NCBI GenBank assembly: GCA_025456425.1
Contig: JALOKP010000007.1
Coordinates: 622 to 64,621, forward strand
DNA: 64,000 nt
Source: Acidobacteriota bacterium
Lineage (GTDB): Bacteria; Acidobacteriota; Polarisedimenticolia; J045
Direction of reading: 5' to 3'
Shown: in pieces, positions 33,273-54,614 of the stretch
How positions within the stretch are numbered: position 1 is the stretch's first letter
Layout: each line of letters opens with the position of its first letter
The notes under the pieces: model-generated
Database searches by the model: none
What the model was told of the DNA's origin: nothing
What the model saw: the letters and a program-made list of their open reading frames with translations, nothing else
Position numbers and translations under genes: made by a program

Positions 33273-33836
33273 CTATTGATCAGGCAAGATCCGCTGCAGT
33301 AGTTCCTCCGCTTGCCGTTCATCTACGTTCGACAGAAGCGTAACCTCGCCGAGCGCGCCCTCGACATCACCCAAGGCGAGATAGCAGTCGGCAGCGCCGC
33401 GGAGTGCCTTGGCATAGCCGGGCTGGAGTGCAGATGCACTCCGGTATGCACCAAGCGCCTCGGCGTACCGCTGCTGAGCGAAGAGGGCGTTTCCGAGATT
33501 GCAGTGCCCGCGGGCGAAGGTGGGATCTGCGGCTACGGCCTGGGAGAACGTATTAGCCGCAGCGGCGAAGCGCCCCGAGTCAAACTGGACGATCCCGAGG
33601 TTGTTCAGGGCCTGAATGTAGTCTGGGCGCAGCGCCACAGCGCGGCCGAGTGCGGTCTCAGCATTCTCGGATTGGTTCAACTTCATGAGACAACAGCCGA
33701 CAATGTAGTGCAGCTCGGGAAGCGTGTCGTCTAGCAGGAGGGCCGAACGACATGCTGCGATCGCCCCTGGGTAGTCACCTACAGCCTCGCGATGAATGGC
33801 CTCGTGGACGAGCTGTTGGAGTTCTGGATTCGGCAT
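33273..33836 (-). CDS. TPR-repeat protein
   Basis: ATG 33836 follows a gggaga SD. GDYPGAIAACRSALLLDDTLPELHYIVGCCLMKLNQSENAETALGRAVALRPDYIQALNNLGIV... gives 4-5 TPR units. Confidence 0.8.
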   Translation of the reverse strand: MPNPELQQLVHEAIHREAVGDYPGAIAACRSALLLDDTLPELHYIVGCCLMKLNQSENAETALGRAVALRPDYIQALNNLGIVQFDSGRFAAAANTFSQAVAADPTFARGHCNLGNALFAQQRYAEALGAYRSASALQPGYAKALRGAADCYLALGDVEGALGEVTLLSNVDERQAEELLQRILPDQ

Positions 33837-33895
33837 CGTCGGGTTCTCCCATTGATCCTGCGTTGCACTACCAGGCGCGGGCCTCGCTGTTGTGC

Positions 33896-34885
33896 CTAGC
33901 TCGCGCGGTACACATGCTGGCGATGCCAGTCGATCGCCTCGAGGCTGGGGCGGCACGAGCTGCGCGTCGGCGGGGTCAGTGCCTGCTGGTGGTATTCCTC
34001 GAGATCGAACCTCTCCCGCTTGGCGCGAGAGACCGCGGGGCTGACCATGACCTCCAGCGACTCGGTGACGCAGAACAGGCCGCGATCGAAGGCCCAGTGG
34101 TGTCGGCGGCAGAGCGAGAGCCCGTTGCGCGGGTCGTCCGGTCCGCCCTGACCGACGCCAATGATGTGGGCTGCCTCCGCCTCGACCAGCGTCTCGGAGG
34201 CTTCGCGCAACAGGAACATCGATTGGCAGACGCTGCACTGATGCCTGTACTCCTCTAGCACCATGCGCTGGAAGGCCTGCTCGCGCGCCGCCCGGCTGGC
34301 GACGTATCGGACGCGGGGTTCGCCGACCTGGAATGGGAGGATCAGGCCGTTGCGCAGGTCGACCTCCTCCAGATCGACGTCGGAGGAGGTTGCCGGCCGG
34401 AGGGCGTCGGCGACCGCCGCCGTGCAGCCCTTGAGGAGGAAGTGCCTTGTTGCCGGCTCATAGCCCGCGACGATGGCGAGGCCCAGGAGGCGGTACCGAG
34501 CGCCACCTGGCGTCTTCGGAGGCTTAGTGGTGACGATGACGAGGATCGGGACGCGATCTTGCATGCAGGCGAAGAGCGCCTTGTTGACGCCGACATCGAG
34601 CCGACCGCGCATCGGGGCGTACCGCATGTCCCAGGTGCCGTTCGGGCCTTGTTCGAAGGTGTCCGGGTAGGCCTCCTCCCGGGCCCCAGCGGCAGACCGG
34701 CTCCAGACGCTGAGGACGTACGGGGAGTCCTTCGGCTTGTAGATCCCCTGGATTAGGGAGTGGATCATCGGGAGGCCGGCCCCCGGGCACTGCGCCTGCG
34801 TGTCCTTGAGGAACGCGGCAGTCTGGTCGGTCCCGAAGTACCGCGAGAGAAACAGAAGCGAGCGAGCGCGTTCGTCGACCGTCAC
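33896..34885 (-). CDS. HNH endonuclease with an N-terminal putative DNA-binding (SRA/YDG-like?) domain; type IV restriction-like
   Basis: 329 aa. The C-terminus YRHQCSVCQ...EAAHIIGVGQGGPDDPRNGLSLCRRHHWAFDRGLF is an HNH_2-type motif. The N-terminus GIYKPKDSPYVLSVWSRSAAG..YPDTF...WDMRY...VPILVIV resembles modified-base reader modules. The GTG start at 34885 lacks a clear SD, so the start is uncertain. Confidence 0.7.
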   Translation of the reverse strand: MTVDERARSLLFLSRYFGTDQTAAFLKDTQAQCPGAGLPMIHSLIQGIYKPKDSPYVLSVWSRSAAGAREEAYPDTFEQGPNGTWDMRYAPMRGRLDVGVNKALFACMQDRVPILVIVTTKPPKTPGGARYRLLGLAIVAGYEPATRHFLLKGCTAAVADALRPATSSDVDLEEVDLRNGLILPFQVGEPRVRYVASRAAREQAFQRMVLEEYRHQCSVCQSMFLLREASETLVEAEAAHIIGVGQGGPDDPRNGLSLCRRHHWAFDRGLFCVTESLEVMVSPAVSRAKRERFDLEEYHQQALTPPTRSSCRPSLEAIDWHRQHVYRAS

Positions 34886-35177
34886 CGGGGGGCCACCCAG
34901 AGGGAGACTTCATCGTACCGAACCCGGGGCGCGGCGGGAAGAGGCCGTCACTGCCGCGAATCCCTGGCCTGCCCTGACGCGAATCCGGCCGCAAGCAGCC
35001 AATCTTCCCACTCTGGCGATATCGTGCGAAGGGGGAACCGCCGCGAAGGGCGACGCGCCTACCGCCACTCCTCCAGTGCTCGGTGACAGGTCGATTGCCA
35101 TACATCCCATTCCTGCCGGTCTAGTGCTGCACACTCTGAGAGTCGATCCACTGAAAGTAAGCGAGTCTGATCCGTAA

Positions 35178-35375
35178 GCCCTCGCTGGAGGACTGCCCTA
35201 CTCCACGTGCTGCCACACGTTCCGAGCCACGGGTATCACCGCCTACCTCGGAAACGGCGGCACCATCGAGAACGCCCAGGCCATCGCCGTGCACCAGTCG
35301 CCCCGAACGGCCGAACTCCACGACCGCACGTCCGACGAAATCACGCTCGACGAAATCGAGCGCATCGTCATCTAG
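35178..35375 (+). pseudogene. 3'-terminal remnant of a tyrosine recombinase/integrase gene
   Basis: The frame opens just after TAA at 35175. Translation ALAGGLPYSTCCHTFRATGITAYLGNGGTIENAQAIAVHQSPRTAELHDRTSDEITLDEIERIVI* is the conserved integrase C-terminus (HxFRATGIT...ESPRTT.LYDR..DEi.LDEiERI). The catalytic Tyr position reads His, and no upstream catalytic domain is present. Confidence 0.7.
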
Positions 35376-36310
35376 ACGGCCTTCTTCACCAACCGGAACA
35401 GGTCCGCGAGCCGCGCCTCCCAGTGCTGCACGTGAATGAGCCGCGCCTTGTGGAGCTTCGCATCCAACAACTCGGCCTTCGTCAACTTCGACAGCGACTC
35501 CCAGTCTCTTTCCAGAACGTACGTCGCGTTCCCGTACCGCGTGCACTCCAGAACGAACAGACTCCGCGCCGGAAAACCGAAAATGACGTACCCGGCGAAG
35601 CCACCGTTGCCGACCGCTGTGAACTCCGGGCCGTACCCGTTCACGGTTTCGAGCCGATGCTCGACCACCGGGCGATTCCCGGCCTTCTGCACGTCGACAA
35701 CGTTCTGGAGCAGCGGCTTCAAGCGTTCCCAGGGCTGCCGTCCCGGCGGCAGCACCCGCCAGTTCAGCCGCATCGTCGAAAGAACACCCGCTGGCCGCAA
35801 CCTCTCGTCGAGAACATCGCACACGCCGAACAGTTCGAGCATCAAGTTGACGTGCAACAGCAAGCGCTCCCCGCGCTGCACGTCGACCACCGCGGCGGGC
35901 GTTGCCACCGCGCGCCTCCCGTCCGCAAGTTCGATGACCTGTAACTCGACGCTCGGCGGCGGCACTGGAGTCCGCGGGTACCGTCGGTACGGAACGTCGA
36001 CGATGTCCGTCACCTCGACCTTGTCTTTGCCGTGCCACTGGAAATACGTCCACTCGCGCTGTCGGTAGCACGTCTCCATTTCCTGGTCGCGGTGGACGAG
36101 CAGCCGCCCCTCCGCGTTGAACCGCGACACGGGACCGACCACCGACGGCAGCACCTTCTCACCCGGTTTCGCATCGGGCGTGAAGCCCGCCTTTCTCAAC
36201 CGCGCGGCGGGGACCTCGTCGACTGGCACTGCGGCAAAGACCCGCGCGCCAGGTGCCACGCCGATGAAATTCGCTTCCACACTCCTGATTCGCTTCTTCT
36301 CGATTCGCAT
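35372..36310 (-). CDS. Hypothetical protein (312 aa), no recognisable domain
   Basis: ATG 36310 lies 8 nt after an aaggag SD. The composition is coding-like (MRIEKKRIRSVEANFIGV...GNATYVLERDWESLSKLTKAELLDAKLHKARLIHVQHWEARLADLF). It lies 13 nt downstream of the DUF2188 gene. Confidence 0.7.
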   Translation of the reverse strand: MRIEKKRIRSVEANFIGVAPGARVFAAVPVDEVPAARLRKAGFTPDAKPGEKVLPSVVGPVSRFNAEGRLLVHRDQEMETCYRQREWTYFQWHGKDKVEVTDIVDVPYRRYPRTPVPPPSVELQVIELADGRRAVATPAAVVDVQRGERLLLHVNLMLELFGVCDVLDERLRPAGVLSTMRLNWRVLPPGRQPWERLKPLLQNVVDVQKAGNRPVVEHRLETVNGYGPEFTAVGNGGFAGYVIFGFPARSLFVLECTRYGNATYVLERDWESLSKLTKAELLDAKLHKARLIHVQHWEARLADLFRLVKKAV

Positions 36311-36323
36311 CCGTTCATCTCCT

Positions 36324-36557
36324 TCAGTGCCGCGTGTCACGCGGCGGGTTCGGGGCGTTGCCGTAACTGTCTTTGTCGCGGATGACGCCCTCGCGGTTGT
36401 GAATGACGACTTCCGACCGCGCGCGCTCCGCAAGATCGCGCGCCCGTTCGATTGCTTCGCGTTGTGTGTCGTGGACCGAGGTCGCGCGCTCGTTCCCCGC
36501 ATCCTTCACCGCCCACCGCCCCTCATGCGGCACCACGTGTTGATTCTTCTTTCCCAT
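36324..36557 (-). CDS. DUF2188-domain small protein
   Basis: 77 aa with a strong SD (aggagga). MGKKNQHVVPHEGRWAVKDAGNERATSVHDTQREAIERARDLAERARSEVVIHNREGVIRDKDSYG matches the DUF2188 pattern. Confidence 0.8.
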   Translation of the reverse strand: MGKKNQHVVPHEGRWAVKDAGNERATSVHDTQREAIERARDLAERARSEVVIHNREGVIRDKDSYGNAPNPPRDTRH

Positions 36558-36669
36558 CGTTTCCTCCTGGACCGTCCTGCGGCCCGTCTGTTTTCTTCAT
36601 TCGCTCCACGCGCCAGCACAGTACTCGTTCACTGTAAGCGGACGACGCGTACACGCTTCGCAAAAAAAA

Positions 36670-37377
36670 TCACAGCACTCCCTGCACGCTCTCCGGGAAC
36701 AGAGCCTCCAGCCTGTACGTCACAACCACCTTGTTGACGTCGAACACCCTCGCCAGCTCGCGCGCTGCCAGGTCCCGCTTCCCCGCCGCCACCGTTTCGA
36801 GGCCCATGCTCCCGACCGGGACGACGAACTCGGCCGCGGCTTCGCGCACCAGTTTCCGTGGCAGCAGCAGGCAGGACATCACTTGATTCGCCTGATACTC
36901 GGCCCACGCGCCGTGGTACTTCCGCTGCCCGTCGCCGGGTCCCACGGAACCCGCGCGGCACAGCACCCGCGGCCGCGTCGGGTCGGCCCAATCACCGAAA
37001 CTCCCCTGCTCGACCTCCTCAAGCGCGATGAGGTGTCCCTGGCAGAGTCCATGCCCCCCCTCGTGCGCCAGAGTCGTGCGCACGCGCCGCTCGCTCGACT
37101 CGGTCGCTTCCTCGGCGAGCGTGCGCGAGACCAACACCGCCGCGACTCCCTCTTTCCCGAAGACCGTCGCGCCGAGCACTTCGGCCGGCAGGTAATCGAC
37201 GAAATCAGGCGTGACCCGGAACTTCTTCTCGATGAACCGCTCGATTCGAATCGGCTCGGGAGACGACGGGTAGAGCCCGACTTCCCGGAGAGCGTCCTCC
37301 GACAGGCGCTCAAATTCCTCCTTCGAGTAGAAGGGCGTCTCCTTGAACTGGCCGCCCGGTCGGTATCGCGTCCTCAT
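36670..37377 (-). CDS. ImmA/IrrE-family (DUF955) zinc metallopeptidase
   Basis: 235 aa. HExxH lies in RVRTTLAHEGGHGLC. The gene shows an ATGA overlap with the upstream XRE gene, the classic XRE-ImmA pairing. Confidence 0.75.
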   Translation of the reverse strand: MRTRYRPGGQFKETPFYSKEEFERLSEDALREVGLYPSSPEPIRIERFIEKKFRVTPDFVDYLPAEVLGATVFGKEGVAAVLVSRTLAEEATESSERRVRTTLAHEGGHGLCQGHLIALEEVEQGSFGDWADPTRPRVLCRAGSVGPGDGQRKYHGAWAEYQANQVMSCLLLPRKLVREAAAEFVVPVGSMGLETVAAGKRDLAARELARVFDVNKVVVTYRLEALFPESVQGVL

Positions 37378-37721
37378 TTGCCGCCCTTCTTCTTCGCGAT
37401 TTCCTCCAACGCCTTCGACAACGCCTCGCCGCTGACCTTGTCGCCCACCAGCCGTCGAAGCGCAACGGCGAACTGCGGGTCCAGCGCCCCGCGCCGCCGG
37501 AGGTCCTCAACCGGTGGCCGCGGGTCGAGCGCCCGCAACTCCTCGACCGGCGTCCGGAGCGCCTTCGCCAGCTTCGTGAGCACATCCTCCGAGGGGTAAC
37601 GACGCCCCAGCTCGATATCCGAGAGAAAAGGCGCCGACACGTCCAGCACCTTCGCGAGGTCGCGAAGTGAAAGGTCGCGGGCCTGCCGCAGTTCTCGGAT
37701 GGTTTCTCCGAAGGTCTTCAC
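37374..37721 (-). CDS. XRE-family helix-turn-helix transcriptional regulator
   Basis: 115 aa. FGETIRELRQARDLSLRDLAKVLDVSAPFLSDIELGRRYPS is a canonical HTH_3 sequence. Confidence 0.85.
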   Translation of the reverse strand: MKTFGETIRELRQARDLSLRDLAKVLDVSAPFLSDIELGRRYPSEDVLTKLAKALRTPVEELRALDPRPPVEDLRRRGALDPQFAVALRRLVGDKVSGEALSKALEEIAKKKGGK

Positions 37722-37727
37722 GCTGTA

Positions 37728-37757
37728 AGCTTACCATGTACGGAAGCCTTCATGCAA
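37728..37757 (-). promoter_or_regulatory. Candidate promoter TTGCAT-N18-TAAGCT ending 6 nt before the XRE GTG (possible leaderless mRNA)
   Basis: Read on the minus strand: ttgcat gaaggcttccgtacatgg taagct tacagc GTG. Confidence 0.3.
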
Positions 37758-37949
37758 CAGACGATTGGCCCCCCCTCGCCATCTCTCCTAACCTGTTGCA
37801 CTGCGCCACTTTACTGTCGCAAGATAGCCTCTCATGAACACTCCCGGGGGACGCGCCACTCATCGAATAGCGAACGGGCCTTCTAACGCGGGGCCCCTCC
37901 ACCATCGCCGAACGTCACACCGCCAAGCGCCGAGGGGGGCAACCCGACC

Positions 37950-40028
37950 GTGACAAAGACATCCGATTCTGGCGCGACCTACGGCCCGCACAACCCGCAC
38001 CCGCTCTCCACTCGGCGCACTGAACTCGTCTGGGAAGGGAAGTACGACGAGCACGGCAACCGCCGTGAATTCGACGTTGCTGCCCTCGCGATGCCCATGC
38101 AGCGCATCGAGACAATCGACCAACCGCGGAGCGAAGCCGCGGCGCGCGGTCAGCTCGCCCTCTTCGAGAAGAAGACCACGCGCGTCGACGACTTCCGTAA
38201 CCGCCTCGTGTGGGGAGATAACAAGCTCGTCACGGCCGGGCTGCTTCGAGACTTCAAGGGTTCCATCGACCTCGTCTACATCGACCCGCCCTTCGACATC
38301 GGCGCCGACTTCTCCATGAATGTCCAAGTCGGTGACGAGAACGACCTCGTTGAGAAGGACCAATCGACACTGGAGATGGTCGCCTACCGCGACACGTGGG
38401 GACGAGGGACGGACTCCTACCTGCAGATGCTCGCCGAGCGCATCGCCACCATGCGGGACCTCCTCTCGCCGACGGGTAGCATCTACGTGCATGTCGGTTG
38501 GGCCGTCTCACACCTCGTGAAGCTCGTTCTTGACGACATCTTTGGCGCTGAGCGCTTTCTGAACCAGCTCATTTGGAAGCGCCAGACTGCGCACAGCGAC
38601 ATCGGGCAGGGTTCCAGGCACCTAGGCCGCATTCACGACGTTATTCTCCTGTACACAAAGGGCGAGCACTTCGCCTGGAATATGCAGTACCAACCCTACT
38701 CGGAAGAATACATCCGCGATTTCTACAAACACGTAGAGCCAGAGTCGGGCCGCCGTTATCGCCTGAGCGACACGACTGGACCAGGCGGCGCCACGAAGGG
38801 AAACCCCCGGTATGAATTCCTCGGCGTAACAAGATTCTGGCGCTTCAAGCAGGAGCGGATGCTGGAGCTGTACCAGCAGGGGCGAATTGTTCAAACGCGC
38901 CCCGGAACGGTTCCACAGCAGAAGCGCTATCTCGACGAAATGCCCGGTGTCCCACTCCAAGACCTCTGGTTCGACATCCCCACCGTTCAACCCCAGGCCG
39001 CGGAACGCACGGGTTACGAAACGCAGAAGCCCGAGGCGTTGATAGAGCGCATCATCACTTTGAGCAGCAACCCCGGTGACCTCGTGGCCGATTTCTTTTG
39101 CGGAAGTGGCACTACCGGCGCCGTTGCGGAACGCCTTGGCCGCCGCTGGCTCATGGCCGACCTCGGCCGCTTCGCCATCCACACGTCGCGTAAGCGCCTC
39201 ATCGACTTGCAGCGCGAGCTTCACAACGAAGCCAAGCCCTACCGCGCTTTTGATGTCTACAACCTCGGGCGCTACGAGCGCCAATGGTGGCAGCGCGAGA
39301 CGCTGAAAGGCGCCGACGAGGAACACCGGCGCGTCGTGCTGGAGTTCTTCAAGGCCGAGATTCTCGACCCCTCGCGCGCCCCGTCCCCCCTCATTCACGG
39401 TCGGAAAGGGCCCGCCCTCTGCCACGTCGACAGCATCGACTCCGTCTTCACGCGCGATGAGGCCACACGCGTCGCCAAGGCGGCGAGCGCCGCGGGGGCG
39501 CGCGACTGCTACTGCCTCGCGTGGGAGTTCGAGATGGACCTCCGCCTCACCACCGCAGCGCTGGAGAAGGAACTCGCCGTTGCGCTTAAGCTTGTACAAA
39601 TCCCGCGCGAAATCATGGAGAAGAACAGGAAGAGCCCCCCGCCCTTCCTCGAAATGGCCGTCCTCAAGGCGGACGCCGTTGTCCACGCCCCGAAACAGAA
39701 GGGCGACCTGCCCTCCGTCGACATCAAGCTCACGAAGTTCCTGCCCTCGCTCGCCGAGGTCCCGAGCGAGGAACTCGAAGCCATCAAGGAACGGGCGATG
39801 AAGAGCGGCTTCGACTTCGTCGACTTCTGGGCCATCGACTTCGATTGGCACCCGGACCAGCCGTTCAATCACCACTGGCAAGACTACCGCACGCGCAAGG
39901 ACCGCTCGCTCAAGACCGTCAGCGACGCCGGGTTCGTGTACCCGAAGAAGGGCACGTACACCGCGTGCGTCAAGGTTGTCGACACGTTCGGCTGCGACAC
40001 CAGCGTCACGGTGGAGGTGCACGTATGA
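37950..40028 (+). CDS. mod: Type III restriction-modification N6-adenine DNA methyltransferase (Mod) with a C-terminal Ig/PKD-like tail
   Basis: 692 aa with GTG start after a gagggggg SD. Motif IV is LVYIDPPF and motif I is DFFCGSGTTGAVAERLGRRW. The tail reads GTYTACVKVVDTFGCDTSVTVEVHV. Confidence 0.9.
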   Translation: MTKTSDSGATYGPHNPHPLSTRRTELVWEGKYDEHGNRREFDVAALAMPMQRIETIDQPRSEAAARGQLALFEKKTTRVDDFRNRLVWGDNKLVTAGLLRDFKGSIDLVYIDPPFDIGADFSMNVQVGDENDLVEKDQSTLEMVAYRDTWGRGTDSYLQMLAERIATMRDLLSPTGSIYVHVGWAVSHLVKLVLDDIFGAERFLNQLIWKRQTAHSDIGQGSRHLGRIHDVILLYTKGEHFAWNMQYQPYSEEYIRDFYKHVEPESGRRYRLSDTTGPGGATKGNPRYEFLGVTRFWRFKQERMLELYQQGRIVQTRPGTVPQQKRYLDEMPGVPLQDLWFDIPTVQPQAAERTGYETQKPEALIERIITLSSNPGDLVADFFCGSGTTGAVAERLGRRWLMADLGRFAIHTSRKRLIDLQRELHNEAKPYRAFDVYNLGRYERQWWQRETLKGADEEHRRVVLEFFKAEILDPSRAPSPLIHGRKGPALCHVDSIDSVFTRDEATRVAKAASAAGARDCYCLAWEFEMDLRLTTAALEKELAVALKLVQIPREIMEKNRKSPPPFLEMAVLKADAVVHAPKQKGDLPSVDIKLTKFLPSLAEVPSEELEAIKERAMKSGFDFVDFWAIDFDWHPDQPFNHHWQDYRTRKDRSLKTVSDAGFVYPKKGTYTACVKVVDTFGCDTSVTVEVHV

Positions 40029-43000
40029 CCGACGGCACCATCAGCCCGGCCGCTTTGGAATCGCTCTTCGAGCCCTGGGAGGAGCCCCGTGCCCACCGCG
40101 TGAAGATCACCGAGAAGGGCAAGCCGGCCCGCATCGTCAACCAACGTCGGCCCTCCCCCTTCCCCATCGTCCAGAACCTCCGGGCCGAGGTGAAGCAGTG
40201 GCGCGAGAGCTTCTACGTCGGCGCGTCCGACACGAGCCGCGCGCTCCTCACCCATTGGTTCGAGCGCCCGCACCGCATGACAACCCCCGCGGGTGATGAG
40301 TTCGAGTTCCGCTACTACTTCTGCCAACGCGAAGCCGTTGAGACGCTCGTCTACCTCAAGGAGTTTCGGCACATCGAATGCCTCTCCGGCCTCATCTCGG
40401 AATTCGAGGGCCCCGGCCGCGAGCAGGCCGCGCTCGGCGTCACCCCCGAGGAGGACGCCTGGACGCGCTTCGCCTTCAAGCTCGCCACCGGAGCCGGAAA
40501 AACGAAGGTCATGAGCCTCGCGATTGTGTGGAGCTACTTTCACGCACTCCGCGAGTCGGACTCTGACCTCGCCAAGCACTTCGTCGTCATCGCGCCGAAT
40601 CTCACCGTCTACGAACGCTTGAAGGAAGACTTTGGCGACGGCCGCGTCTTCGACAACGACCCGCTCGTCCCGCCCGAGTGGCGCGGCGATTGGAACATGA
40701 GCGTCGTGCTCCAGGACGAGGCGAGCGGCGCTGCGACCGGCGGCACGCTCTACCTCACGAACATCCACCGGCTCTACGACATGGCGAAGCGCCGCGGGAA
40801 GGACGCCGAGACCTATTCCTTCATGGGCCCGCCCGTTTCGAAAGGCACCGCGCTGGACACCGGAGCCGCGCTCCGCGACCGCGTCACCGCGCACAACCGC
40901 GTGATGGTCCTCAACGACGAAGCCCACCACGTCTGGGACCCCGACTCGGCCTGGAACGAGGCGATTCAATTTCTCCACGAGACCATCAAGTCGCGCACGG
41001 GCGGCGGTCTCGCCGCCCAGCTCGATTTCAGCGCGACGCCGAAAGACAACCGCGGCCAGCCGTTCAAGCACATCGTCTGCGACACCCCGCTCGGTGAGGC
41101 CGTCGACGCGGGCATCGTCAAGACGCCCATCATCGGTAAGACCGACCAGGAACTCCACGAGGAGCCGAGCGACAACGCCGCGTACCGCTTCGACCGGCAC
41201 CTCCGCATCGGTTACGAGCGCTGGAAGCACAGCCGCGACGAGTGGACCAAGTCCGGGAAGAAGGCGCTTCTTTTCGTCATGTGCGACAGCACCGAGAGCG
41301 CCGACCAGATCACGGCGCGCCTTAACACCGACCCGAGCTTCCAAGACCTCAACGGCAAGACCATCAACCTGCACACCAACCTCAAGGGGTCGGTGAAGAA
41401 GGTCGGCCGCGGCCCCTCCGCGCGCCTCCAATTCGTCGAGAGCGACAAGGACATCAAGGACGAGGACCTCAAAGCGCTGCGCGAACTCAGCCGCAACCTC
41501 GACCAGAACACGACGCCCTATGCCTGCATCGTTTCCGTCCTCATGCTCCGCGAGGGCTGGGACGTGCGGAACGTCACGACCATCGTGCCTCTCCGCGCGT
41601 ATTCGGCCGCGGCCGGCATCCTGCCCGAACAGACTCTCGGCCGCGGGCTCCGGCGCATCACGCCGCCCGGCAAGCAGGGCGCGCACGAGATTCTCACCGT
41701 CGTCGAACACCCCGCCTTCGCCGCGCTCTACGAGCAGCAGCTCGCCCAGGAAGGACTCCCCATCGAGGTCGTCGACGTCGACCAGATCCCGAGCACCACG
41801 GTGTCGATTTACCCCGACGAGGCCCGCAAGGACCTCGCGGCCCTGGAACTCGCCGTGCCCGGCCTCACGCCCGGGCTCCGCATCATCCCGAAGCTCGAAG
41901 GCCTCGCCCTCGACGATGTCAAGAAGGGCTTTGCGAAGTTCAAGCGGTTACCGCTGGCCAAGGAAGTGCGTACTGAGCTCGACTACGAGGGGAAACACCT
42001 CTTCACCGGCGAAATCATCGAGCGGATGAAGCTCCACATCCCACTCCTCGAAAGTGGCGTCGGCGCCGTGTCGTATTACGTCCAGCAGCTCGAACAGATT
42101 TGCAAACTGCGGAGCCTGCACACGATTCTCGCGCCGCTCCTCCAGACGTTCTTCGAGGAGGTCCTGTTCGAGGAGAAGGCAACGCTGTTCGACCCGCGCC
42201 TCGTGGCACGGCTCGGCAACTCCGACGTCGCGGAACACGTGCGCGCGGTCTTTGTTCCACTCATCCGCGCGCGCACCATCAGCAGCGAACGGCGCGCGGC
42301 GACGGGCGAGGCGATGCGCCTCTCCCGGTGGCGCGCGTACCAAGTCACGCACAGCGAACGCCGCCCGGCCCTCGAAGCCCAGAAGACGCTTTTCAACCTG
42401 GTCCCCTGCAACCGCGAGCTGGAAGTCGCGTTCGCGCGCTACGCCGACCGCGCGGCCGACGTCACCGCGTTCGCGAAAAACGCCGGTCCGCAGTGCCTCC
42501 GCATCGACTATCTCGGGACCGCAGGGAACCTCGCCTTCTACACCCCGGATTTCTTCGTCCGCACCACCGACGGCACGTCCTACCTCGTCGAGACCAAGGG
42601 ACGTGAGGACCGCGACGTGCCGCGTAAGGCCCGCGCCGCCGTTGCGTGGTGCGAGGCCGCCTCCGACCCGGCCGGCGCGTGGGAGTACCTCTACGTGCCC
42701 CAGGGGGTCTTCGAGCGCATCAGCACGGCGACGATTCGCGAACTCGCCGACACCTGCCGCCCGGCGCTCCGTAACCTCGTCGAGGAAGAGGACCTCCAGG
42801 CGAAGTACCCACTTTTCGCCGCCATCGCCGAAGCACGAGCCGCCGAGGACGAGAAGGCTCCCGAGACCCTTGTGCCGGAGGAGACCCTCAAGGCTCTTCC
42901 CGACCGCTACCGGAAGGCGGTCGAGCAAGCCACGATGCTCTACCGATTCCTTGAGAACAAAGAGGGCCTCAACTACGCGCCGGTTTTCAACGCCCTCCTC

Positions 43001-43450: not shown

Positions 43451-43664
43451 GGGAGGGTTCGTGGCAACACAAGAGACGACCATGTAGGGAGTTCATGGCG
43501 GCAGAACCGGCGACGCCGACACCCCTTTCCTCGTGCATCAGGAGTGGCCCCCGCGCCCACCGCGCGGCGGCCCGGCAACCTGGGCGGACACCCAAGGTGC
43601 CTTCCCGCGGGACGCGGGGATGCGGTCCGGGCGAGAGCCCCGGGCAACCAAGTGTCCGGACGAG

Positions 43665-43700
43665 GACCCGTGCCTGTTGCGGCACGGGTCTTTTCGTTTC
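43665..43700 (+). terminator. Rho-independent terminator
   Basis: Perfect 10-bp stem gacccgtgcc / ggcacgggtc with 6-nt loop tgttgc, followed by ttttcgtttc. Confidence 0.7.
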
Positions 43701-43776
43701 GGGGGCGCCCACCGGCGCCCGCAGCGTCCCGCGGCCCGGCCGCCCGACGGGGTCCGCCCTCGAGGAGGGATCGGAC

Positions 43777-45306
43777 ATGGCGGGAACGCGCACGCACCTC
43801 GGCTTCACCGAACACCTCGGGCTCGTCGGCTGGCGGCGGCTGGAGCCCGTGCTCCTGGCCGCGCTGGCGGGCGAGTCGCCCCTGCTCCTGGTCGGCCCGC
43901 ACGGGACCGGGAAGTCGCTGCTGGTCGAGCGCGTGGCCGGGGCGCTGGGGCTCCCCTTCCGGCACTACAACGCCTCGCTCCTCAACTACGACGACCTGGT
44001 CGGGATCCCCCTGCCGGACGAGGCCGGGCGCGCACTGAGCTTCGTGGCCTCGCCGGGCGCGATCTGGGACGCCGGCTTCGTCTTCCTCGACGAGCTGTCG
44101 CGTTGCCGGCCGGAGCTGCAGAACAAGCTCTTCCCGATCGTCCACGAGCGGCGCGTGGCGGGGGTGGACCTGCCCCGGCTGACCCACCGCTGGGCCGCGA
44201 TGAACCCCCCGGCCCCCGACGACGCCGACTCCGCCGCCGCCGGGGCCCCGGCCTACCTGGGCGCCGAGCCGCTCGACCCCGCGCTGGCCGACCGCTTCCC
44301 GTTCGTCGTCCGCGTCCCGACCTGGGACGAGCTGTCGCTCCCCGAGCGGCTCCGGCTGGTGGCGGGCGCCGGCCCGGACGATCCCCCGGGGCGCCGGCCG
44401 CGGCCCCGCCCGCTCCCCGCGCTGGTCGAGGCCGTGCGCGCCACGCTCCGCCGGCTGCGGCGCCGGCCAATGCCCCGGCTGCCGGACTACGTCGTCCAGC
44501 TCGCGGCGCAGCTCGAGACCGCGGGCCTGCCGCTCTCGCCGCGCCGCGCGCGGATGCTGGCCGACGGCGTGGTCGCCGTGCACGCCGCGCGGCTGGTGCT
44601 AGAGGGACCGGAGGCCGCGCTGGAGGAGAGCGCGCGGCTCGCGCTGCAGAGCGGCCTGCCGCAGACCGCGGCCGAGGTCCCGCCGGCCGCCGGGACGCTC
44701 CACGCCGCGCACCGCCAGGCCTGGAAGCTCTCGGGCCTGGTGGCGGACGACCTGTGGCGCCGAGTGCTCGAGGAGCGGGACCCCGTCCGGCGCGTCGAGC
44801 TGGGCGATCGGCTGGGGCTATCCGACGCCGACCTGTCGCGGCTGGTGACGCAGGCGCTGGCGGCGGCCGGCTCGGAGGCGCGGCGGCTGGGGCTGGCGAC
44901 CGCGCTCTTCCTGCGCTTCCGCACGCGGCGCGACCTGGCGCCGGCAGCGTGGGAGCCGCTGGGCGAGCGGGCCGGGCGCGTGCTGCGCCCGCCCGCGCGC
45001 TACCTGTCGATCGGCCCCGGCCCCGCCACCGAGCGCTGGCGCGAGATCCACCAGCACCTGGCGGCGGCGCGGAAGCGCGGGGAGCCGCTGCCGCGGCTCG
45101 AGTCGAACTTCCTGCGCGCGGGGTTCCCGGAGGTCTGGGCGCTCGAGGACTGGCGCCCGGCCCTGGAGGCCTTCCGGGCCGATCTGGCGCTGTTCGAGGC
45201 GGCGGGAGAGGTCGAGTCTGGGGCCGCGTCCGACGCCAGCCCCGGGGCCGCTCCGGCGGCCGGAGAGGCCTCGGCTCCCCGGGGCGAGGAGGCCGCGTGG
45301 GCATGA
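43777..45306 (+). CDS. MoxR-like (AAA_5) AAA+ ATPase with a long helical C-terminal extension
   Basis: ATG 43777 follows a gaggaggga SD. Walker A is LLLVGPHGTGKSLL, Walker B is GFVFLDELSRC, followed by RWAAMNPP and the sensor region. About 260 additional residues have no recognisable motif. Confidence 0.85.
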   Translation: MAGTRTHLGFTEHLGLVGWRRLEPVLLAALAGESPLLLVGPHGTGKSLLVERVAGALGLPFRHYNASLLNYDDLVGIPLPDEAGRALSFVASPGAIWDAGFVFLDELSRCRPELQNKLFPIVHERRVAGVDLPRLTHRWAAMNPPAPDDADSAAAGAPAYLGAEPLDPALADRFPFVVRVPTWDELSLPERLRLVAGAGPDDPPGRRPRPRPLPALVEAVRATLRRLRRRPMPRLPDYVVQLAAQLETAGLPLSPRRARMLADGVVAVHAARLVLEGPEAALEESARLALQSGLPQTAAEVPPAAGTLHAAHRQAWKLSGLVADDLWRRVLEERDPVRRVELGDRLGLSDADLSRLVTQALAAAGSEARRLGLATALFLRFRTRRDLAPAAWEPLGERAGRVLRPPARYLSIGPGPATERWREIHQHLAAARKRGEPLPRLESNFLRAGFPEVWALEDWRPALEAFRADLALFEAAGEVESGAASDASPGAAPAAGEASAPRGEEAAWA

Positions 45307-45851
45307 TCGACGAAATGGCCCGGTCCATGGGACTCCTTCCACCGGTACAGGTCGTGCTGGCCGGCCTGCCGTGCGAGCGGGCGGGCGCGGTGCGCTTCGC
45401 GCTGCGGGCGCTGGGGGACGCCGCGGACGAACTGCGCGCGCGCGCCCTGGTGGGCGAGGCCGCGCTGCTCCGGCAGCTCGAGGAGGCGTGGGCGGCGTGG
45501 GGGCTGCGCGGCGCGGCCCTGATCGAGCCGGGGCGCCGGCCCCGCTGCCGGCTGGAGGTCTCCCCCGGCCTGAAGGCGCTCCGCGACCCCGAGGCGGAGG
45601 TGCTCGAGGTGGACTACATGGCGAGCACCCGGGGCACGATCGGCGGCGTGCGCGGCGCGATCATCGGGGCCCCCGAGCCGCCGCCCGTCGTCGCGACCGA
45701 CCCGCTGCTGCTGCTCAACGTGCTGGGCCGCGCGCGCGGGCCGGTGCTGATCGCGCGGGCCCCGCTGGCGCTCGAGCCAGCCTTCCTGGAACGCGAGCTG
45801 ATCAGCCGCGACGCGCGGCTGCTGGCGCTGGCGCGCGGGGAGGGGAGGTGA
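45303..45851 (+). CDS. Hypothetical protein (182 aa), translationally coupled on both sides
   Basis: ATG 45303 overlaps the AAA+ stop (ATGA), and the gene's own stop overlaps the next GTG (GTGA). MIDEMARSMGLLPPVQVVLAGLPCERAGAVRFALRALG... No motif recognised. Confidence 0.6.
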   Translation: MIDEMARSMGLLPPVQVVLAGLPCERAGAVRFALRALGDAADELRARALVGEAALLRQLEEAWAAWGLRGAALIEPGRRPRCRLEVSPGLKALRDPEAEVLEVDYMASTRGTIGGVRGAIIGAPEPPPVVATDPLLLLNVLGRARGPVLIARAPLALEPAFLERELISRDARLLALARGEGR

Positions 45852-47304
45852 GGGCGGGCGGGCGGGCCGCAGCCGCGGTGGCCGAGCGGATCGTGAACTG
45901 CCTCCCGGCCGCGAGCGTCGAGATGGAGACGTTCTGCCGGCTGGCGTCGATCGAGCTGGTGGACGACGGGGAGGCCGGGGCGCCCGGGGCGCGGGGTCCG
46001 GCCGTCCGGACCACCCCCGCCGTCCGCACCGCCGCGGTCGAGTGCGCCGATCGCCCGCGCCTGCTGCTCAACGCGCGCTTCCTGCGCGAGTACTGCAGGC
46101 GCGACGAGCACCTGTTCCTGCTGGTGATGCACGAGCTGTGGCACGTGATCCTGGGACACACCCGGCTCTACCCGCGCATCGACCTGGCGGACGAGATCGC
46201 CTTCGACGCGGTCATCAACGCGGGGCTGGCGCGGCAGTTCCGCGGCCCGGAATACCTGGGCTTCTTCGACCGCCTCAACCCCGCCGACTCGTTCCCGGCG
46301 CTGCTGCTCCGCCCGCCCGCCGGCTGGCCCGACGATCCGGTCTATCCCGGGCTCGGACCGGCGGGGACGCTGCGCGTGCTGCGCCAGCTCTACCCGCCGC
46401 CGGACTACCCCCCCACCGTCTCGATCCCGTCGCACGCCGAGCTGGTGGCGCTGATCGCCGCGGGCCCGCGCGGGCGGAAGCGGTGCGAGCCGCTGCTGCT
46501 GGGGGACCACGAGACAGGCCCCGCGGGCGGCGGCTCGCTCGACCCCGGCGCCGCCCCGACCCGCGCCCAGCGCGCCCTGGCCGACCCCCTGCTGGCCGAC
46601 GTGCTGCGCCGCAGCGTCGCGCACTGGCCGGAGCCACCGTTCGTGCTCGGCAACCCGGGGCGTGGCGGCTTTCCGTCCGCGCACGACGTCCTTCCCGCCC
46701 CCGCCGCCGAGGCCGCGCGCCGCGTCTTCGCGCGCCTGCTGCGCCGCTGCCTGGTGGAGGGCCCGTCGCGCGAGCGGCGCCGCACGCGCGTCCCAACGCG
46801 CGCGACCGGCTGGCCCCCGCGCGCCGCCGCCTCGGCCTGCCGGCGACGCTCTACGCGCAGCCCGCGATCGCCCGGTCCCTGGCGCGCGAGCCGGACGGGG
46901 TCGCGCACGTCTACCTCGACGTCTCGGGCTCGATGGCGGCGCTGCTGCCGCGCCTGGTCGGCCTGCTCCGCCCGCACGCGCTGGCCGGCCGCGCGAAGGT
47001 CTTCCAGTTCTCGACCACCGTCTGGCCGCTGCCCGCCGCCCAGTTGCGCCGCGGCGAGATCCGCACGACCGGCGGCACGGCCATCGACCCGGTGCTGCAG
47101 CACGCGGTCGACGCGCCGCGCGTGCGCCGGATCCTGGTCCTGACCGACGGCGTGACCGGCGACCCGCACCGGCGCCTGGCGAAGAAGGTGCGGGCCCGCC
47201 GGATCAAGGTGCACGTGGTGCTGCCGGCCGAGTCGGCGCACCGCCGGCACCTCGAGGGGATCGCGGCGAGCGTGACGGTGCTGCCGGGGGTGGATCGCGA
47301 CTGA
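45848..47304 (+). CDS. HExxH metallopeptidase-like domain fused to a VWA-like domain (DUF2201-type architecture); needs a frame change near 46.8 kb (possible pseudogene or assembly indel)
   Basis: Frame 2 from GTG 45848 gives LFLLVMHELWHVILGHTR. Frame 1 downstream gives VAHVYLDVSGSMAALLPRL...TTGGTAIDPVL...ILVLTDG, a MIDAS-like DxSGS motif in a VWA fold. No start codon exists in frame 1 upstream of the VWA part. The span is 1457 nt, which is not a multiple of 3. Confidence 0.6.
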
Positions 47305-47426
47305 AGGAGTTGCGCGAGCACTTGACCGACCACGTTCCTCGACGGCGTGGCGCGCCATTCCCACCCTGGAAACGTCGCTCCGTTGCTCCAGGACGAATCA
47401 CTACTATCCTGCCGAGCCTGAGGGTC

Positions 47427-51498: not shown

Positions 51499-51768
51499 AT
51501 GCCCGCCACGGCGACTCCAAGCGTTGCCGGAGTGGGATCGTGGCCGCGGCGTCGGTTGGGCTCGGCGATCCGCAAGGAGCCCCGCCCTCATGTGCACGAC
51601 CGGCACGGCACCGGCCTGGTCCAAATCTGGCTTGCTCCTGCCATCGAAGTTGCGTCACACTCCCGCATGGACGCACCGAGCCTCTCGAGGGCACTCCGGC
51701 TCGTGCGCCAGAACGAGGATCTCCTCCGTGCCGCGTGGGAATCGCATCGCCGCTCCGACGATCGCTGA
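51499..51768 (+). CDS. DUF4160-domain protein
   Basis: ATG 51499. ...EPRPHVHDRHGTGLVQIWLAPAIEVASHSRMDAPSLSRALRLVRQNEDLLRAAWE matches the DUF4160 pattern (pPHvHv...g.a.i.l.p......g......l..v..n...l...W). The start is uncertain. Confidence 0.6.
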   Translation: MPATATPSVAGVGSWPRRRLGSAIRKEPRPHVHDRHGTGLVQIWLAPAIEVASHSRMDAPSLSRALRLVRQNEDLLRAAWESHRRSDDR

Positions 51769-51985
51769 GCTGACCGAGGCCGGCTTCTGGCTCGTCCTCG
51801 ACGCGCGCCGGATCTTCGTCGAATTCCGCGAGTTCCCGTGGTTTCGGGGCCGCTCGCGCGAGGAGCTGGAGTCCATCGAACGTCCCTTCCCCGATGAACT
51901 CCGCTGGCCCGAGCTGGACGTCGACCTGGCGGTCGACTCGCTGCTCCACCCGGAGCGGTACCCGCTGCGGTTCGGGGGGCTCTGA
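51728..51985 (+). CDS. DUF2442-domain protein
   Basis: GTG 51728. FWLVLDARRIFVEFREFPWFRGRSREELESIERPFPDELRWPELDVDLAVDSL is the DUF2442 signature (l.Wp.lDvDl). Confidence 0.65.
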   Translation: MPRGNRIAAPTIAELTEAGFWLVLDARRIFVEFREFPWFRGRSREELESIERPFPDELRWPELDVDLAVDSLLHPERYPLRFGGL

Positions 51986-51992
51986 GCCCTCC

Positions 51993-52307
51993 ATGGCGAC
52001 CCGAGCGAAGCACCCCCCCATTCACCCCGGCGAGGTTCTCGCCGCGGACTTCCTCGCGCCCTTGAATCTCTCCCAGTACCGCCTCGCCCGGAGCATCAGC
52101 GTGCCGCCCCGGCGCATCAACGAGATCGTCCACGGCGAGCGGGCGATTTCGGCCGACACGGCCCTTCGCTTCGCGCGGTTCTTCGGCACCTCCGACCGCT
52201 TCTGGCTGAACCTGCAGACGCGCTACGACCTCGAGGTCGAGCGTGACCGCCTCGGCGCACGCCTCGACCAGGAGGTCACGCCCTTGGCCGCGGTGCGGGC
52301 CGGGTGA
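51993..52307 (+). CDS. higA: HigA-family (VapI-type) HTH antitoxin with no adjacent HigB
   Basis: ATG 51993. IHPGEVLAADFLAPLNLSQYRLARSISVPPRRINEIVHGERAISADTALRFARFFGTSDRFWLNLQTRYDLE is the canonical HigA sequence. Confidence 0.85.
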   Translation: MATRAKHPPIHPGEVLAADFLAPLNLSQYRLARSISVPPRRINEIVHGERAISADTALRFARFFGTSDRFWLNLQTRYDLEVERDRLGARLDQEVTPLAAVRAG

Positions 52308-52400
52308 CGGGGTGCCCGGGCCTGCCCCCGGGGCGGGTGGCAGGCGCGTCGCTCCTCCGCCTGGTCGATCATCACCGGGCCCTTCTGTTGGAGGCGTGGC

Positions 52401-52697
52401 ATGACGACTTCGCGCACTGACCTGACGCCCGTCGCGGTCAATGTCCTCTGCACGGAAGACGCCCTCGAAATCACGCTCTCCGACGGTCGCCGCCTGTCCG
52501 TGCCGCTCTGGTGGTTCCCGCGTCTCCTCCGCGCCACACCGGACCAGCGCGCGCGCTGGGAACTGATCGGGCAGGGCGAGGGGATTCACTGGCCCGACGT
52601 GGACGAGGACCTGGAGGTCGAGCACCTCTTCTCGTATTCGCTCCGGCCGCTCCCGGCGAGTGCCGCCGACTGGAAGCCTCCACGTATCGAGCCGTAG
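52401..52697 (+). CDS. DUF2442-domain protein
   Basis: 98 aa. ALEITLSDGRRLSVPLWWFPRLLRATPDQRARWELIGQGEGIHWPDVDEDLEVEHL. Confidence 0.75.
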   Translation: MTTSRTDLTPVAVNVLCTEDALEITLSDGRRLSVPLWWFPRLLRATPDQRARWELIGQGEGIHWPDVDEDLEVEHLFSYSLRPLPASAADWKPPRIEP

Positions 52698-52857
52698 ACG
52701 GACAAGGTCCACGGCTCCCCCCTCCACCTCCCGCCGCATCCGCCCCGCACCTCCGCGCGACTCCCGCCCCGCGCAACGCGTCGCCCTCCCCTTCCCGCGG
52801 CGCCGCCCCCGCGTACGCTCCAGGCACCGGCACTCCCGCCCGGCGAATGGAGGCCCG

Positions 52858-53820
52858 ATGCTCCGCCGCGCCCGCCTCGCCGCACTCGTCCTCCCCGCCC
52901 TGTTCCTGCCCGCCGCAGCGAGTGCGGCGCGCCCGACCGAGCCGCCGACGCTCTGGGACTTCGCGCGCGAGGCCGAGTTGATCGTCTACGCCGACATCCG
53001 CTCGGTCCAGCCGCTGCCGGAGCCGGAGGAGTAGACCCGGAACGACGCGATCGCGCGACTCATCGTGCTGGAGGCCTGGAAGGGCGAGGATCCCGCCATC
53101 GTCGACGTCCCTCATCGCACCTGGACGGGCTGCTCCACGCCGCCGAGGTACGTCGAGGGCCGGTTCGTCGTCGACTTCCTCGCGCGGAAAGGGGCGGCGT
53201 GGGCCACCCTGAAGCTCGCCTACGACACGATCTTTCCCCGCGCCGAAGACCTCTCCGCGCTGCGCGCCAGCGTCCGCGAGGCGGCGCGGCTGCAGGCCAA
53301 GGGGCGCGCCAAGGAACCCCTCCGCGTCGCCTGGGCGGTGCGCGCCGCAACCCATCCCGTCACGCGCTGGGACGGGCTCTTCGAGCTGATGCCCTCCTCC
53401 GACATCCTGCACTCCGCCTACGCCCCGAAGCCGACGCCGGACACCTCCGCCCGCCTCAAGCCCGAGCAGAAGCGCGCCCTGGCCGCGGCCGGCGTCGCGC
53501 AGCCGAGCCTCGATCGGACGCTGCCGATGCTCCTGGCCGTGCTGCGCGGCTATCCCGATCCCGACCTGGACCGGCTCGCGGGCGGCGCGATCGAGGGGCT
53601 GCTGGCCGAGGACGAGCCCCCGTGGTGGACGCGCGACGTCCTGCTGCGCGGACTCGAGCGCCTCGGTGATCCGAAGCTCGAGGCCTACCGCGAGCAGTTG
53701 GGCGAGGAGTTCGAGGAGCCCGACCCGGACGTGATGCGCACGATCTGGGACGAAGCCCGCCGCGACCTGGCCCTGCCGAACTTCCCGAAGCTCCGCCGGC
53801 GCGCGCCGGCGGCCTGGTGA
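52858..53820 (+). pseudogene. Exported hypothetical protein interrupted by an in-frame TAG at 53032-53034
   Basis: ATG 52858 follows a ggagg SD. The signal peptide is MLRRARLAALVLPALFLPAAASAARP. The same reading frame continues straight through TAG (…PLPEPEE*TRNDAIARLIVLEAWKGEDP…) into the 251-aa ORF 53065..53820. Confidence 0.55.
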
Positions 53821-53978
53821 GCCGGGGCACTCGCATCGTCCGCTCGGCGCGCGCGCGTGCGCTTCCCGCAGGCGGGACGGGCTGCTTCGACGCAGGTTTC
53901 ACGGCGCTCGCTCGCCGCGCATCCTGAAGGCACCGCGCGATGACGGGGTGGGCCGGGGGGCACGCTCTGACATCGCCC

Positions 53979-54007
53979 TTGACCGGGGTGCGCCAATGGC
54001 GTATATG
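53979..54007 (+). promoter_or_regulatory. Sigma70-like promoter TTGACC-N17-TATATG ending 5 nt before the higB2-like GTG (possible leaderless mRNA)
   Basis: ttgacc ggggtgcgccaatggcg tatatg tcgcg GTG, read directly. Confidence 0.35.
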
Positions 54008-54012
54008 TCGCG

Positions 54013-54327
54013 GTGAAGTTCATCGAGACGGAGGGCTTCGCCCGTCGAGCCCGGGAACTCATGTCGGAGGACGCGCTCGCCTCCCTCAGGGAGTGGCTGG
54101 CGAGCCATCCGGAGTGGGGGTCCGTGATCCCGGGCTGCGCGGGGCTCCGCAAGCTGCGCTGGGCGCTTCCTGGACGCGGCAAGCGGGGAAGTCTCCGGGT
54201 GCTGTACCTCTCGTGGCCGGCCCACGAGTCGATCGTGTTGGTTCACGTCTACGGAAAGAACCGGGGAGAGCCCTCATGGGAGCAGCTCAGACGGCTGGCA
54301 AGAGACGCGCGAAGAAGCCTGGGATGA
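54013..54327 (+). CDS. RelE/HigB-2-like toxin
   Basis: 104 aa. MKFIETEGFARRARELMSEDALASLREWLASHPEWGSVIPGCAGLRKLRWALPGRGKRGSLRVLYLSWPAHESIVLVHVYGKN is the typical sequence of this toxin family. Confidence 0.8.
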   Translation: MKFIETEGFARRARELMSEDALASLREWLASHPEWGSVIPGCAGLRKLRWALPGRGKRGSLRVLYLSWPAHESIVLVHVYGKNRGEPSWEQLRRLARDARRSLG

Positions 54328-54614
54328 GCGAGGCCGACTTTCAGGAGCTGCTGGAGAGCGTCCGCGAGGCCGGCGCCATCATGCGCGGCCAGCGCAAGCC
54401 CGCCCGCGTCACGGTGGTCGAGCCGGTCCACGTGCAGGCGATCCGCAGGCGGCTGGGCATGACGCAGCCGGAGTTCGCGCGGCTGATCGGCGTCAGCGTG
54501 GCCACGCTGCGCAACTGGGAGCAGGGGCGCCGCCAGCCGCACGGCCCGGCCCGCGCCCTGCTCAAGGTCGCCGCGAAGAACCCGAAGGCCGTACTGGACG
54601 CGCAGCGTGGGTGA
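54324..54614 (+). CDS. XRE-type HTH antitoxin (HigA-2/NadS-like)
   Basis: ATG 54324 overlaps the toxin stop (ATGA). VHVQAIRRRLGMTQPEFARLIGVSVATLRNWEQGRRQPHGPARALLKVAAKNP. Confidence 0.85.
   Translation: MSEADFQELLESVREAGAIMRGQRKPARVTVVEPVHVQAIRRRLGMTQPEFARLIGVSVATLRNWEQGRRQPHGPARALLKVAAKNPKAVLDAQRG

Follow-up and report, generated by a model that had tools for sequence, protein, structure and literature searches.

A predicted S-adenosylmethionine riboswitch before a MoxR ATPase–VWA operon in a bacterial defence island: a candidate module of S-adenosylmethionine homeostasis

The question raised by this locus is whether an operon that lies among anti-phage genes is itself an anti-phage system. 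The operon is found in a stretch of 64,000 nucleotides (nt) from an Acidobacteriota bacterium (assembly GCA_025456425.1, contig JALOKP010000007.1), the whole of which is referred to below as the window, and consists of three genes on the forward strand (43777–47304) that encode a MoxR-like AAA+ ATPase, a protein of 182 amino acids (aa) and a protein combining an HExxH zincin motif with a VWA domain. All three open reading frames (ORFs) were found as an earlier note on this DNA had described them, and the overlaps that would couple their translation, ATGA at 45303–45306 and GTGA at 45848–45851, can both be read in the sequence. The triad has a type III restriction-modification (R-M) system on one side and a dCTP deaminase on the other, with AbiE nearby, and the earlier note had proposed it as an uncharacterised conflict system. 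The features of the operon and its leader are the following.

43530–43661, forward strand: S-adenosylmethionine (SAM)-I/IV riboswitch aptamer in the operon leader (Rfam RF01725, sub-threshold, homologous to copies above the threshold)
43665–43699, forward strand: intrinsic terminator, probable expression platform of the riboswitch (stem of 43665–43674 with 43681–43690, then TTTTCGTTT)
43777–45306, forward strand: gene 1, MoxR-class AAA+ ATPase, 509 aa (Pfam AAA_5)
45303–45851, forward strand: gene 2, operon-specific small protein, 182 aa (no family match; lies between genes 1 and 3)
45848–47304, forward strand: gene 3, HExxH zincin-like N-terminal domain and C-terminal VWA domain (motifs and VWA_CoxE; frame broken in the window assembly)

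The answer favoured here, which is given about an even chance (roughly 0.5), is that the locus is a SAM-regulated operon, i.e., a module that is induced when SAM is low and acts on a target connected with SAM synthesis by remodelling or cleaving it. Two features point to SAM homeostasis, namely the SAM riboswitch upstream of the operon and a SAM synthetase paralogue that closes it in relatives.

The aptamer of the window matches RF01725 with 35.4 bits (E 4e-4 in a search of 451 nt) and aligns over its whole conserved core with above-threshold copies that stand at the same position of the operon in other loci (designated here by L numbers). Its CAGGAG variant also occurs in L063, and a similar CGGGAG in L089 and L026. 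A SAM riboswitch is located directly 5′ of gene 1 in 21 of about 25 loci of the clade to which the window belongs, called the four-gene clade after the additional gene described below, and the classes found are SAM-I/IV, SAM-IV and SAM-II. Scores above the Rfam gathering score were obtained for SAM-I/IV in nine loci (L086, L087, L081, L063, L089, L099, L026, L100 and L110), with the orthologous SAM-I/IV leaders reaching 41.6–58.3 bits, for SAM-IV in L107 and L080, and for SAM-II in L126, L121 and L128. Three structurally unrelated classes of predicted SAM aptamer precede the same operon in different lineages. A strict regular expression for the core had missed most copies, and a covariance model was built from five of them; this model placed the element 5′ of gene 1 at 17 separate loci in the four-gene clade, one of them the window. 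In an alignment of 18 copies 97.7% of the cells were paired, 21 of the 30 pairs were compensatory and none of 500 shuffles, and no slid register, did as well, although the alignment had been fitted to the model and the figures therefore lean towards structure.

The aptamer is followed at 43665–43699 by a hairpin with a perfect 10-base-pair stem and a T-run, 78 nt before the ATG of gene 1. It is the only terminator-like site between 43300 and 49300, and the minimum free energy fold of 43525–43705 gives the aptamer and then the hairpin, with a z-score of −2.9. The earlier note had taken this hairpin for a strong terminator after the R-M genes, a reading that is displaced by its position 215 nt beyond the Res stop codon and directly behind a SAM-I/IV aptamer; because of the latter, it is most likely the leader terminator of the triad operon itself, and it is probably the expression platform of the riboswitch.

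The second feature is a fourth gene which, in the relatives outside the Anaerolineae, starts at or just before the stop codon of gene 3. A divergent SAM synthetase gene was found by tblastn directly after gene 3 in 13 genome loci, and it was present in every contig fetched for the four-gene clade. A metagenome scan seeded with this synthetase alone gave 56 loci. Of these, 38 extend 500 nt or more upstream of it, and 37 of these 38 have gene 3 immediately before it, with gene 1 before gene 3 where the contig allows. In the sole exception (L123, 8248–9227) the triad is missing upstream, and a SAM-I/IV-like element stands directly before the divergent synthetase. The paralogue keeps the GHPD, DGK, GDxGLSGKK and GGGAxxGKDPxKVDR motifs and matches the solved MetKs with 173 bits; all three MetK Pfam domains match weakly, the central one below the Pfam cut-off, and the identity to Escherichia coli MetK is about 27–30%. 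At L026 (6251–12500) two SAM-I/IV riboswitches head tandem units, the one a metK homologue (41% identical to E. coli MetK) and the next a four-gene cassette. Near the four-gene cassettes of two unrelated contigs, L083 (530–3994) and L088 (8572–11958), a protein of ~1,130–1,150 aa with RNase_H_2 and AAA_11/AAA_30 helicase domains was also seen. As read from these contigs, a divergent SAM synthetase, translationally coupled, is normally the last gene of the operon in the window's clade.

Relatives of gene 3 were found in 191 species (one genome per species was scanned), and the best 80 loci were fetched. Among these, tblastn and ORF clustering revealed the order gene 1–gene 2–gene 3 in 68 genome loci of other species, so the arrangement is not due to chance, and the ATGA overlap of genes 1 and 2 was seen in 37 of 63 loci. 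Conservation does not extend to the flanking genes, of which the next most frequent cluster is present in at most 13 of the 80 loci. Most of the copies come from Anaerolineae and other Chloroflexota, with a few from Acidobacteriota, Actinomycetota, Planctomycetota and others. When gene 1 was placed in a neighbour-joining tree, the loci with the SAM synthetase mostly fell into basal lineages with a short gene 2, the window among them. The earlier note had known of no validated system of this composition, and none is described in the literature or the family libraries searched; literature searches on DUF2201, on MoxR with SAM synthetase and on SAM riboswitches with MoxR or VWA likewise found the cassette nowhere described.

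The product of gene 1 matches Pfam AAA_5 with 46.8 bits (cut-off 22, 3.8e-12, profile positions 1–139), and the same core is matched more weakly by bpMoxR (23.7 bits, cut-off 27), AAA_3 and Mg-chelatase. The motifs GPHGTGKS, FVFLDEL and AAMNP are present as the earlier note had read them. The AAA_5 core and lid extend to about residue 290 and are followed by a family-specific helical C-terminal domain. A profile search of the PDB returned midasin, NorQ, RavA and CobS, all for the AAA core only, and gave no solved relative for the C-terminal ~200 aa. Walker A, Walker B, sensor 1, the arginine finger and a SPRRAR motif are invariant in 19 homologues, the invariant residues being G40, G43, K46, D105, E106, N143, R173, R256 and R257; the assignment of residues to motifs, including sensor 2, was made by inspection. 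A partner with a VWA domain and a metal ion-dependent adhesion site (MIDAS) is encoded alongside by gene 3.

Gene 2 had been noted as lacking any recognisable domain, and this holds: nothing was found in Pfam, PADLOC or NCBIfam, nor did its profile match the PDB. It is the fast-evolving member of the operon (28–35% identity), with a conserved core that ends in LVLNVLAR...DDPRL. A search with the single sequence gave two proteins and a profile was needed for the rest, which amount to only 227 cluster representatives among 1.84 billion proteins. Two of the 227, both divergent members, are fusions of gene 1 with gene 2 (P0227, 679 aa; P0259, 669 aa), with the ATPase at residues ~14–470 and the gene 2 domain at ~472–670. 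Such natural fusions argue for physical contact between the two, and the gene 2 product is a probable adaptor bound to the ATPase. In the Anaerolineae clade (e.g., L064, L069 and L078) gene 2 has a long disordered N-terminus rich in P, Q and N, commonly together with an acidic tail at the C-terminus; in the window's clade the protein is short and has neither.

The zincin motif (MHELWHVILGH) and the VWA/MIDAS signature (DVSGSM...GGT...TDG) of gene 3 were both confirmed. Its reading frame begins with a GTG at 45848, while the VWA part lies in another frame that ends at 47304, and the C-terminal fragment matches VWA_CoxE with 27.9 bits (cut-off 26.4). In 22 homologues H95, E96, H99, H104 and the complete MIDAS (DxSxS...T...D) are invariant. 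Members of the family measure about 460–500 aa and have a constant architecture in nearly all of 120 homologues, among the matches listed. The predicted model of gene 3 (pLDDT 71.2) finds its best PDB matches in the VWA domain of NorD in NorQD complexes (9qhe, 9qhd and 9qh6, E 7e-7 to 3e-5), which span the VWA domain and the preceding linker at ~20% sequence identity; in BFVD the best matches are full-length phage “metallopeptidase/VWA-like” proteins, with E down to 8e-11 and TM-scores of at most 0.44. The profiles of genes 2 and 3 gave nothing significant in searches of the PDB.

The course of events proposed for the SAM-regulated operon is as follows. At high SAM the aptamer would favour the terminator and the operon would be off, and with falling SAM the operon would be transcribed. 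The ATPase hexamer would then dock the VWA protein, by analogy with CbbQ–CbbO and NorQ–NorD, for which a MoxR–VWA remodelling mechanism has been proposed (PMC4660213, PMC13036017, PMC9976466), while the gene 2 adaptor would sit on the C-terminal domain of the ATPase. The MIDAS site would grip an acidic group on the target, ATP hydrolysis would remodel the target, and the attached zincin domain may cleave it. The likeliest target would be the SAM synthetase paralogue or else the housekeeping MetK or a protein that limits MetK, and the outcome would be a greater capacity for SAM synthesis under SAM shortage.

Several observations weigh against this explanation. The window aptamer falls below the gathering score of 41.1, and the SAM synthetase gene is missing both from the window and from its close relative L003. 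In the Anaerolineae clade the covariance model detected the element in none of ~60 loci, a search of eight of its loci found no Rfam element of any kind 5′ of the operon, and no SAM synthetase gene lies within 10 kb. The triad must therefore be capable of functioning where no SAM synthetase stands beside it. The contact between the triad and the synthetase stands as a proposal, the role of the zincin domain is left unexplained by the activase analogy, and the AlphaFold model of gene 2, built with 23 sequences, is too poor (pLDDT 41.6) for a fold search. Furthermore, defence neighbours are commoner at the four-gene cassettes than at the Anaerolineae copies. Within 7 kb of 18 four-gene loci, 137 PADLOC families were matched at 1e-10 among 118 neighbours; at the same threshold, the two nearest genes on each side of Anaerolineae copies gave five families among 106 neighbour proteins, and the next two genes per side gave 19 among 124, including TnpB, a reverse transcriptase and a TIR protein. 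This difference fits an accessory or conflict-related role.

The window copy itself is, to judge from its sequence, a derived form, with no SAM synthetase and with gene 3 frameshifted in the window assembly, and no other member of its clade in the gene 1 tree is without a SAM synthetase gene. Its triad would act in trans or would be on its way out, the synthetase having been lost or never been there. A decaying remnant, in which the synthetase was lost and the triad is drifting towards a pseudogene, is compatible with the SAM-regulated operon as the explanation for the family as a whole, but is unlikely. What speaks for decay, besides the solitary position of the window, is the frame break, for which the earlier note had rightly called for a correction of gene 3: 34 nt are deleted at 46792/46793, which takes out the region of the invariant G322 and throws the VWA domain out of frame, so that the window assembly, a metagenome-assembled genome of an acidobacterium, has a truncated ORF of 431 aa (P0001). 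Yet the same locus is intact in two other assemblies, GCA_025490975.1 and a Logan assembly, which served as the reference and encode a protein of 496 aa (P0002); the contig of the former equals window 35848–57304 (21.5 kb) save for the 34 nt between 46792 and 46793. The deletion is either a real variant or an assembly error. A programmed frameshift was rejected, as the 34-nt deletion has no counterpart in the other assemblies. Relatives with 87–95% protein identity carry a full-length gene 3, and its dN/dS against the closest relative is 0.34, by which measure gene 3 is under purifying selection in the lineage; both the aptamer and the catalytic residues have been retained as well.

The reading of the earlier note, in which the triad is a stand-alone anti-phage or conflict system, is considered quite improbable; in such a system the MoxR–VWA pair would recognise a protein of the invader and set the zincin protease free as an effector, leading to abortive infection or cleavage of a phage protein. 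The conserved and coupled MoxR–VWA triad on which it was built was borne out, as was the dCTP deaminase downstream; the inference of a conflict system rests on the neighbours alone and is not the best reading. In its favour are the place of the triad between the type III R-M system and the dCTP deaminase with AbiE nearby, the scattering of the family over phyla outside the Chloroflexota, and the proposal that MoxR–vWA systems with peptidase effectors are conflict systems (PMC7159879). To this are added neighbours at the level of single genes, i.e., McrBC with a methylase (L083), BrxC of BREX (L099), a C5 methylase with MzaD/E-like genes (L126), an OLD-type ATPase (L134), an IetA-like ATPase (L112), RtcR (L128) and transposases. 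When 20 large neighbours were tested singly, BrxC and the MzaE-like protein matched, one in L144 matched only weakly and 17 gave nothing; and among annotated contigs one carries the McrBC and methylase, one a DUF3427 helicase-nuclease and one two transposases, while three are plainly metabolic or have toxin-antitoxin genes only.

Other results stand against a stand-alone conflict system. PADLOC (PADLOC-DB v2.0), which the earlier note had named as a check, has no model that fits any of the three proteins; gene 1 gave only P-loop-level matches (E 0.003 or worse), and genes 2 and 3 gave none. The architecture does not vary, and conservation is high in genes 1 and 3 (56–57% mean column identity), whereas diversifying immune sensors are usually more variable. 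Searches of plasmid, phage and IMG/VR collections for gene 3, and of IMG/VR for the SAM synthetase paralogue, returned no copy, and an origin from a mobile element or prophage is unsupported by these searches. The control by a SAM riboswitch and the coupling to a SAM synthetase would be left unexplained, and the deaminase neighbour is missing from the close relative L003. The earlier note had also held that homologues sitting mainly in housekeeping contexts would speak against defence, and this is largely what was found in the family at 27–36 loci of the Anaerolineae clade, where the two nearest genes on each side (27 loci) encode peptidases, thiamine pyrophosphate enzymes, sigma factors, response regulators and aminotransferases. 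The defence reading is kept in play by the clade with the window, in which ~7–9 of ~21 loci have recognised defence genes within 7–10 kb (a raw count with no matched control), a share that would be in excess of the background but below the level usually required. That the window copy stands in a defence island is explained by its insertion at a variable site and does not demonstrate a role in defence.

A further alternative would join the two themes: the triad could be an alarm for SAM depletion that backs SAM-dependent immunity, such that a phage SAM lyase lowers SAM and blocks MetK so as to disarm R-M or BREX, the riboswitch senses the fall and the triad restores synthesis. This too has a low probability, and equally slight is the chance that the machine frees or replaces MetK and destroys a phage inhibitor by remodelling or proteolysis, or that full cassettes add an inhibitor-resistant SAM synthetase with the riboswitch as an infection sensor. 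The SAM riboswitch upstream of the operon and the divergence of the cassette synthetase would be accounted for, as would the neighbours that use SAM, in the window (type III R-M) and in L099 (BREX), L083 (methylase and McrBC) and L126 (C5 methylase). As cited in PMC12839542, T3 overcomes BREX through its SAM lyase, which cleaves SAM and also inhibits its synthesis (Andriianov 2023). The idea is, however, purely inferential, and several cassettes lie in plain metabolic surroundings. Adjacency to methylases is weak evidence, DNA methylases being the commonest defence genes. The window copy is without a SAM synthetase, and a transcriptional riboswitch may be too slow in a lytic infection.

Least likely of all is a generic MoxR–VWA maturation factor for an unrelated metalloenzyme, like CoxD/E or NorQ/D and with no link to SAM: most characterised MoxR–VWA pairs do work in this way (PMC13036017, PMC9976466) and the VWA domain of gene 3 matches a CoxE-type Pfam family, but no cox, nor, cbb or other neighbour is conserved, and the three SAM riboswitch classes and the linked SAM synthetase speak against an unrelated client.

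A comparison with the closest known systems shows where the proposed SAM-regulated module departs from them. CbbQ–CbbO (PMC4660213) is similar in having a hexameric AAA_5 ATPase beside a VWA/MIDAS protein, encoded near the enzyme that it services. The triad differs in that its VWA partner has an N-terminal HExxH zincin-like domain, a small third protein is an obligatory part, a paralogue of MetK is taken to be the client and the predicted control is by a riboswitch, and in being known from sequence and models alone. NorQ–NorD (PMC13036017, PMC9976466) provides the best structures for the gene 3 model and the NorQ AAA core for the gene 1 profile; the identity is ~20%, the nor context is missing, NorD has no zincin motif, and gene 1 has an extra C-terminal domain of ~200 aa. 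The VWA-like proteins with DUF2201_N (PF13203, a putative metallopeptidase) have a zincin followed by a VWA domain in one chain, as gene 3 does, and occur in phage copies. About 40% of the gene 3 homologues, among the matches listed, have a weak precomputed match to PF13203; the N-terminal 318 aa of gene 3 in the window gave none at E<0.1, P0040 reached 20.4 bits against a cut-off of 23.2, and gene 3 is at this level of similarity only a sub-threshold relative of the DUF2201_N proteins, which are mentioned in passing only in the literature found.

The ternary systems of Kaur, Burroughs, Iyer and Aravind (PMC7159879) are likewise built of three genes, with a third component beside the MoxR ATPase and the vWA protein and frequently with peptidase domains, and are biased to Chloroflexota, Actinomycetota, Planctomycetota and Deltaproteobacteria. 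In contrast to these, gene 2 is not recognisable as VMAP, iSTAND, FtsH or a beta-propeller (no Pfam or PDB profile match), and the peptidase of the triad is N-terminal to the vWA domain in an invariant architecture, rather than a variable C-terminal effector. By domain content, the triad falls outside all four ternary conflict classes of Kaur et al. Finally, metK and methionine operons under SAM riboswitches (RF01725, RF00634 and RF00521) share the leader of aptamer and terminator and, in the relatives, the SAM synthetase homologue as the last gene; here three machine genes stand between riboswitch and synthetase, and the window has no synthetase.

MoxR–VWA pairs are known as helpers of single enzymes, such as rubisco, nitric oxide reductase or carbon monoxide dehydrogenase, and no paper or library searched ties such a pair to SAM metabolism. 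A SAM-regulated operon of this kind would predict an unrecognised layer of control over SAM synthesis, in the form of an activase for methionine adenosyltransferase, a quality-control protease or a regulator, and it gives the gene 2 family its first context. If the alarm for SAM depletion were true instead, the riboswitch would serve as an infection sensor. The locus is also a caution for the mining of defence islands, since a well-placed candidate carried a metabolite sensor that points elsewhere.

As to the surroundings of the operon, the downstream gene is indeed an anti-phage dCTP deaminase (NCBIfam NF041025, 424.7 bits; PADLOC dCTPase, 9e-154), and its distance from gene 3, noted earlier as 122 nt, was found to be 122–128 nt. 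No terminator-like site lies in the interval 47305–47426 between the two, so read-through from the riboswitch operon into the deaminase is possible. The segment 47307–50680, with the dCTP deaminase, small ORFs and AbiEii, is missing from L003, a relative ~92% identical in DNA, and its absence there marks the deaminase as an independent insertion; the blocks that flank the missing segment stand in another order in L003. On this comparison, the site directly 3′ of gene 3 is a variable insertion hot spot. A functional tie between triad and deaminase was rejected, because L003 does not have the deaminase and because it stands beside the operon only in re-assemblies of the same locus.

On the R-M side the G+C content is 0.62–0.66 over 28000–43000, against 0.72–0.79 elsewhere and 0.78–0.79 in the triad, and the two blocks have probably had separate histories. 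The R-M genes are preceded closely, at ~36300–37720 on the reverse strand, by helix-turn-helix (HTH_3/HTH_31), Peptidase_M78 (ImmA/IrrE-like) and DUF2188 genes. After the AbiE pair, at ~51700–54600, DUF2442/HTH_3 pairs and an MqsA-like antitoxin gene follow, and this toxin-antitoxin-like run extends the island beyond that pair. At a greater distance, at 22295–22537 on the reverse strand, a tRNA-Gly(TCC) lies beside an 85-nt tRNA-like call with an undetermined anticodon.

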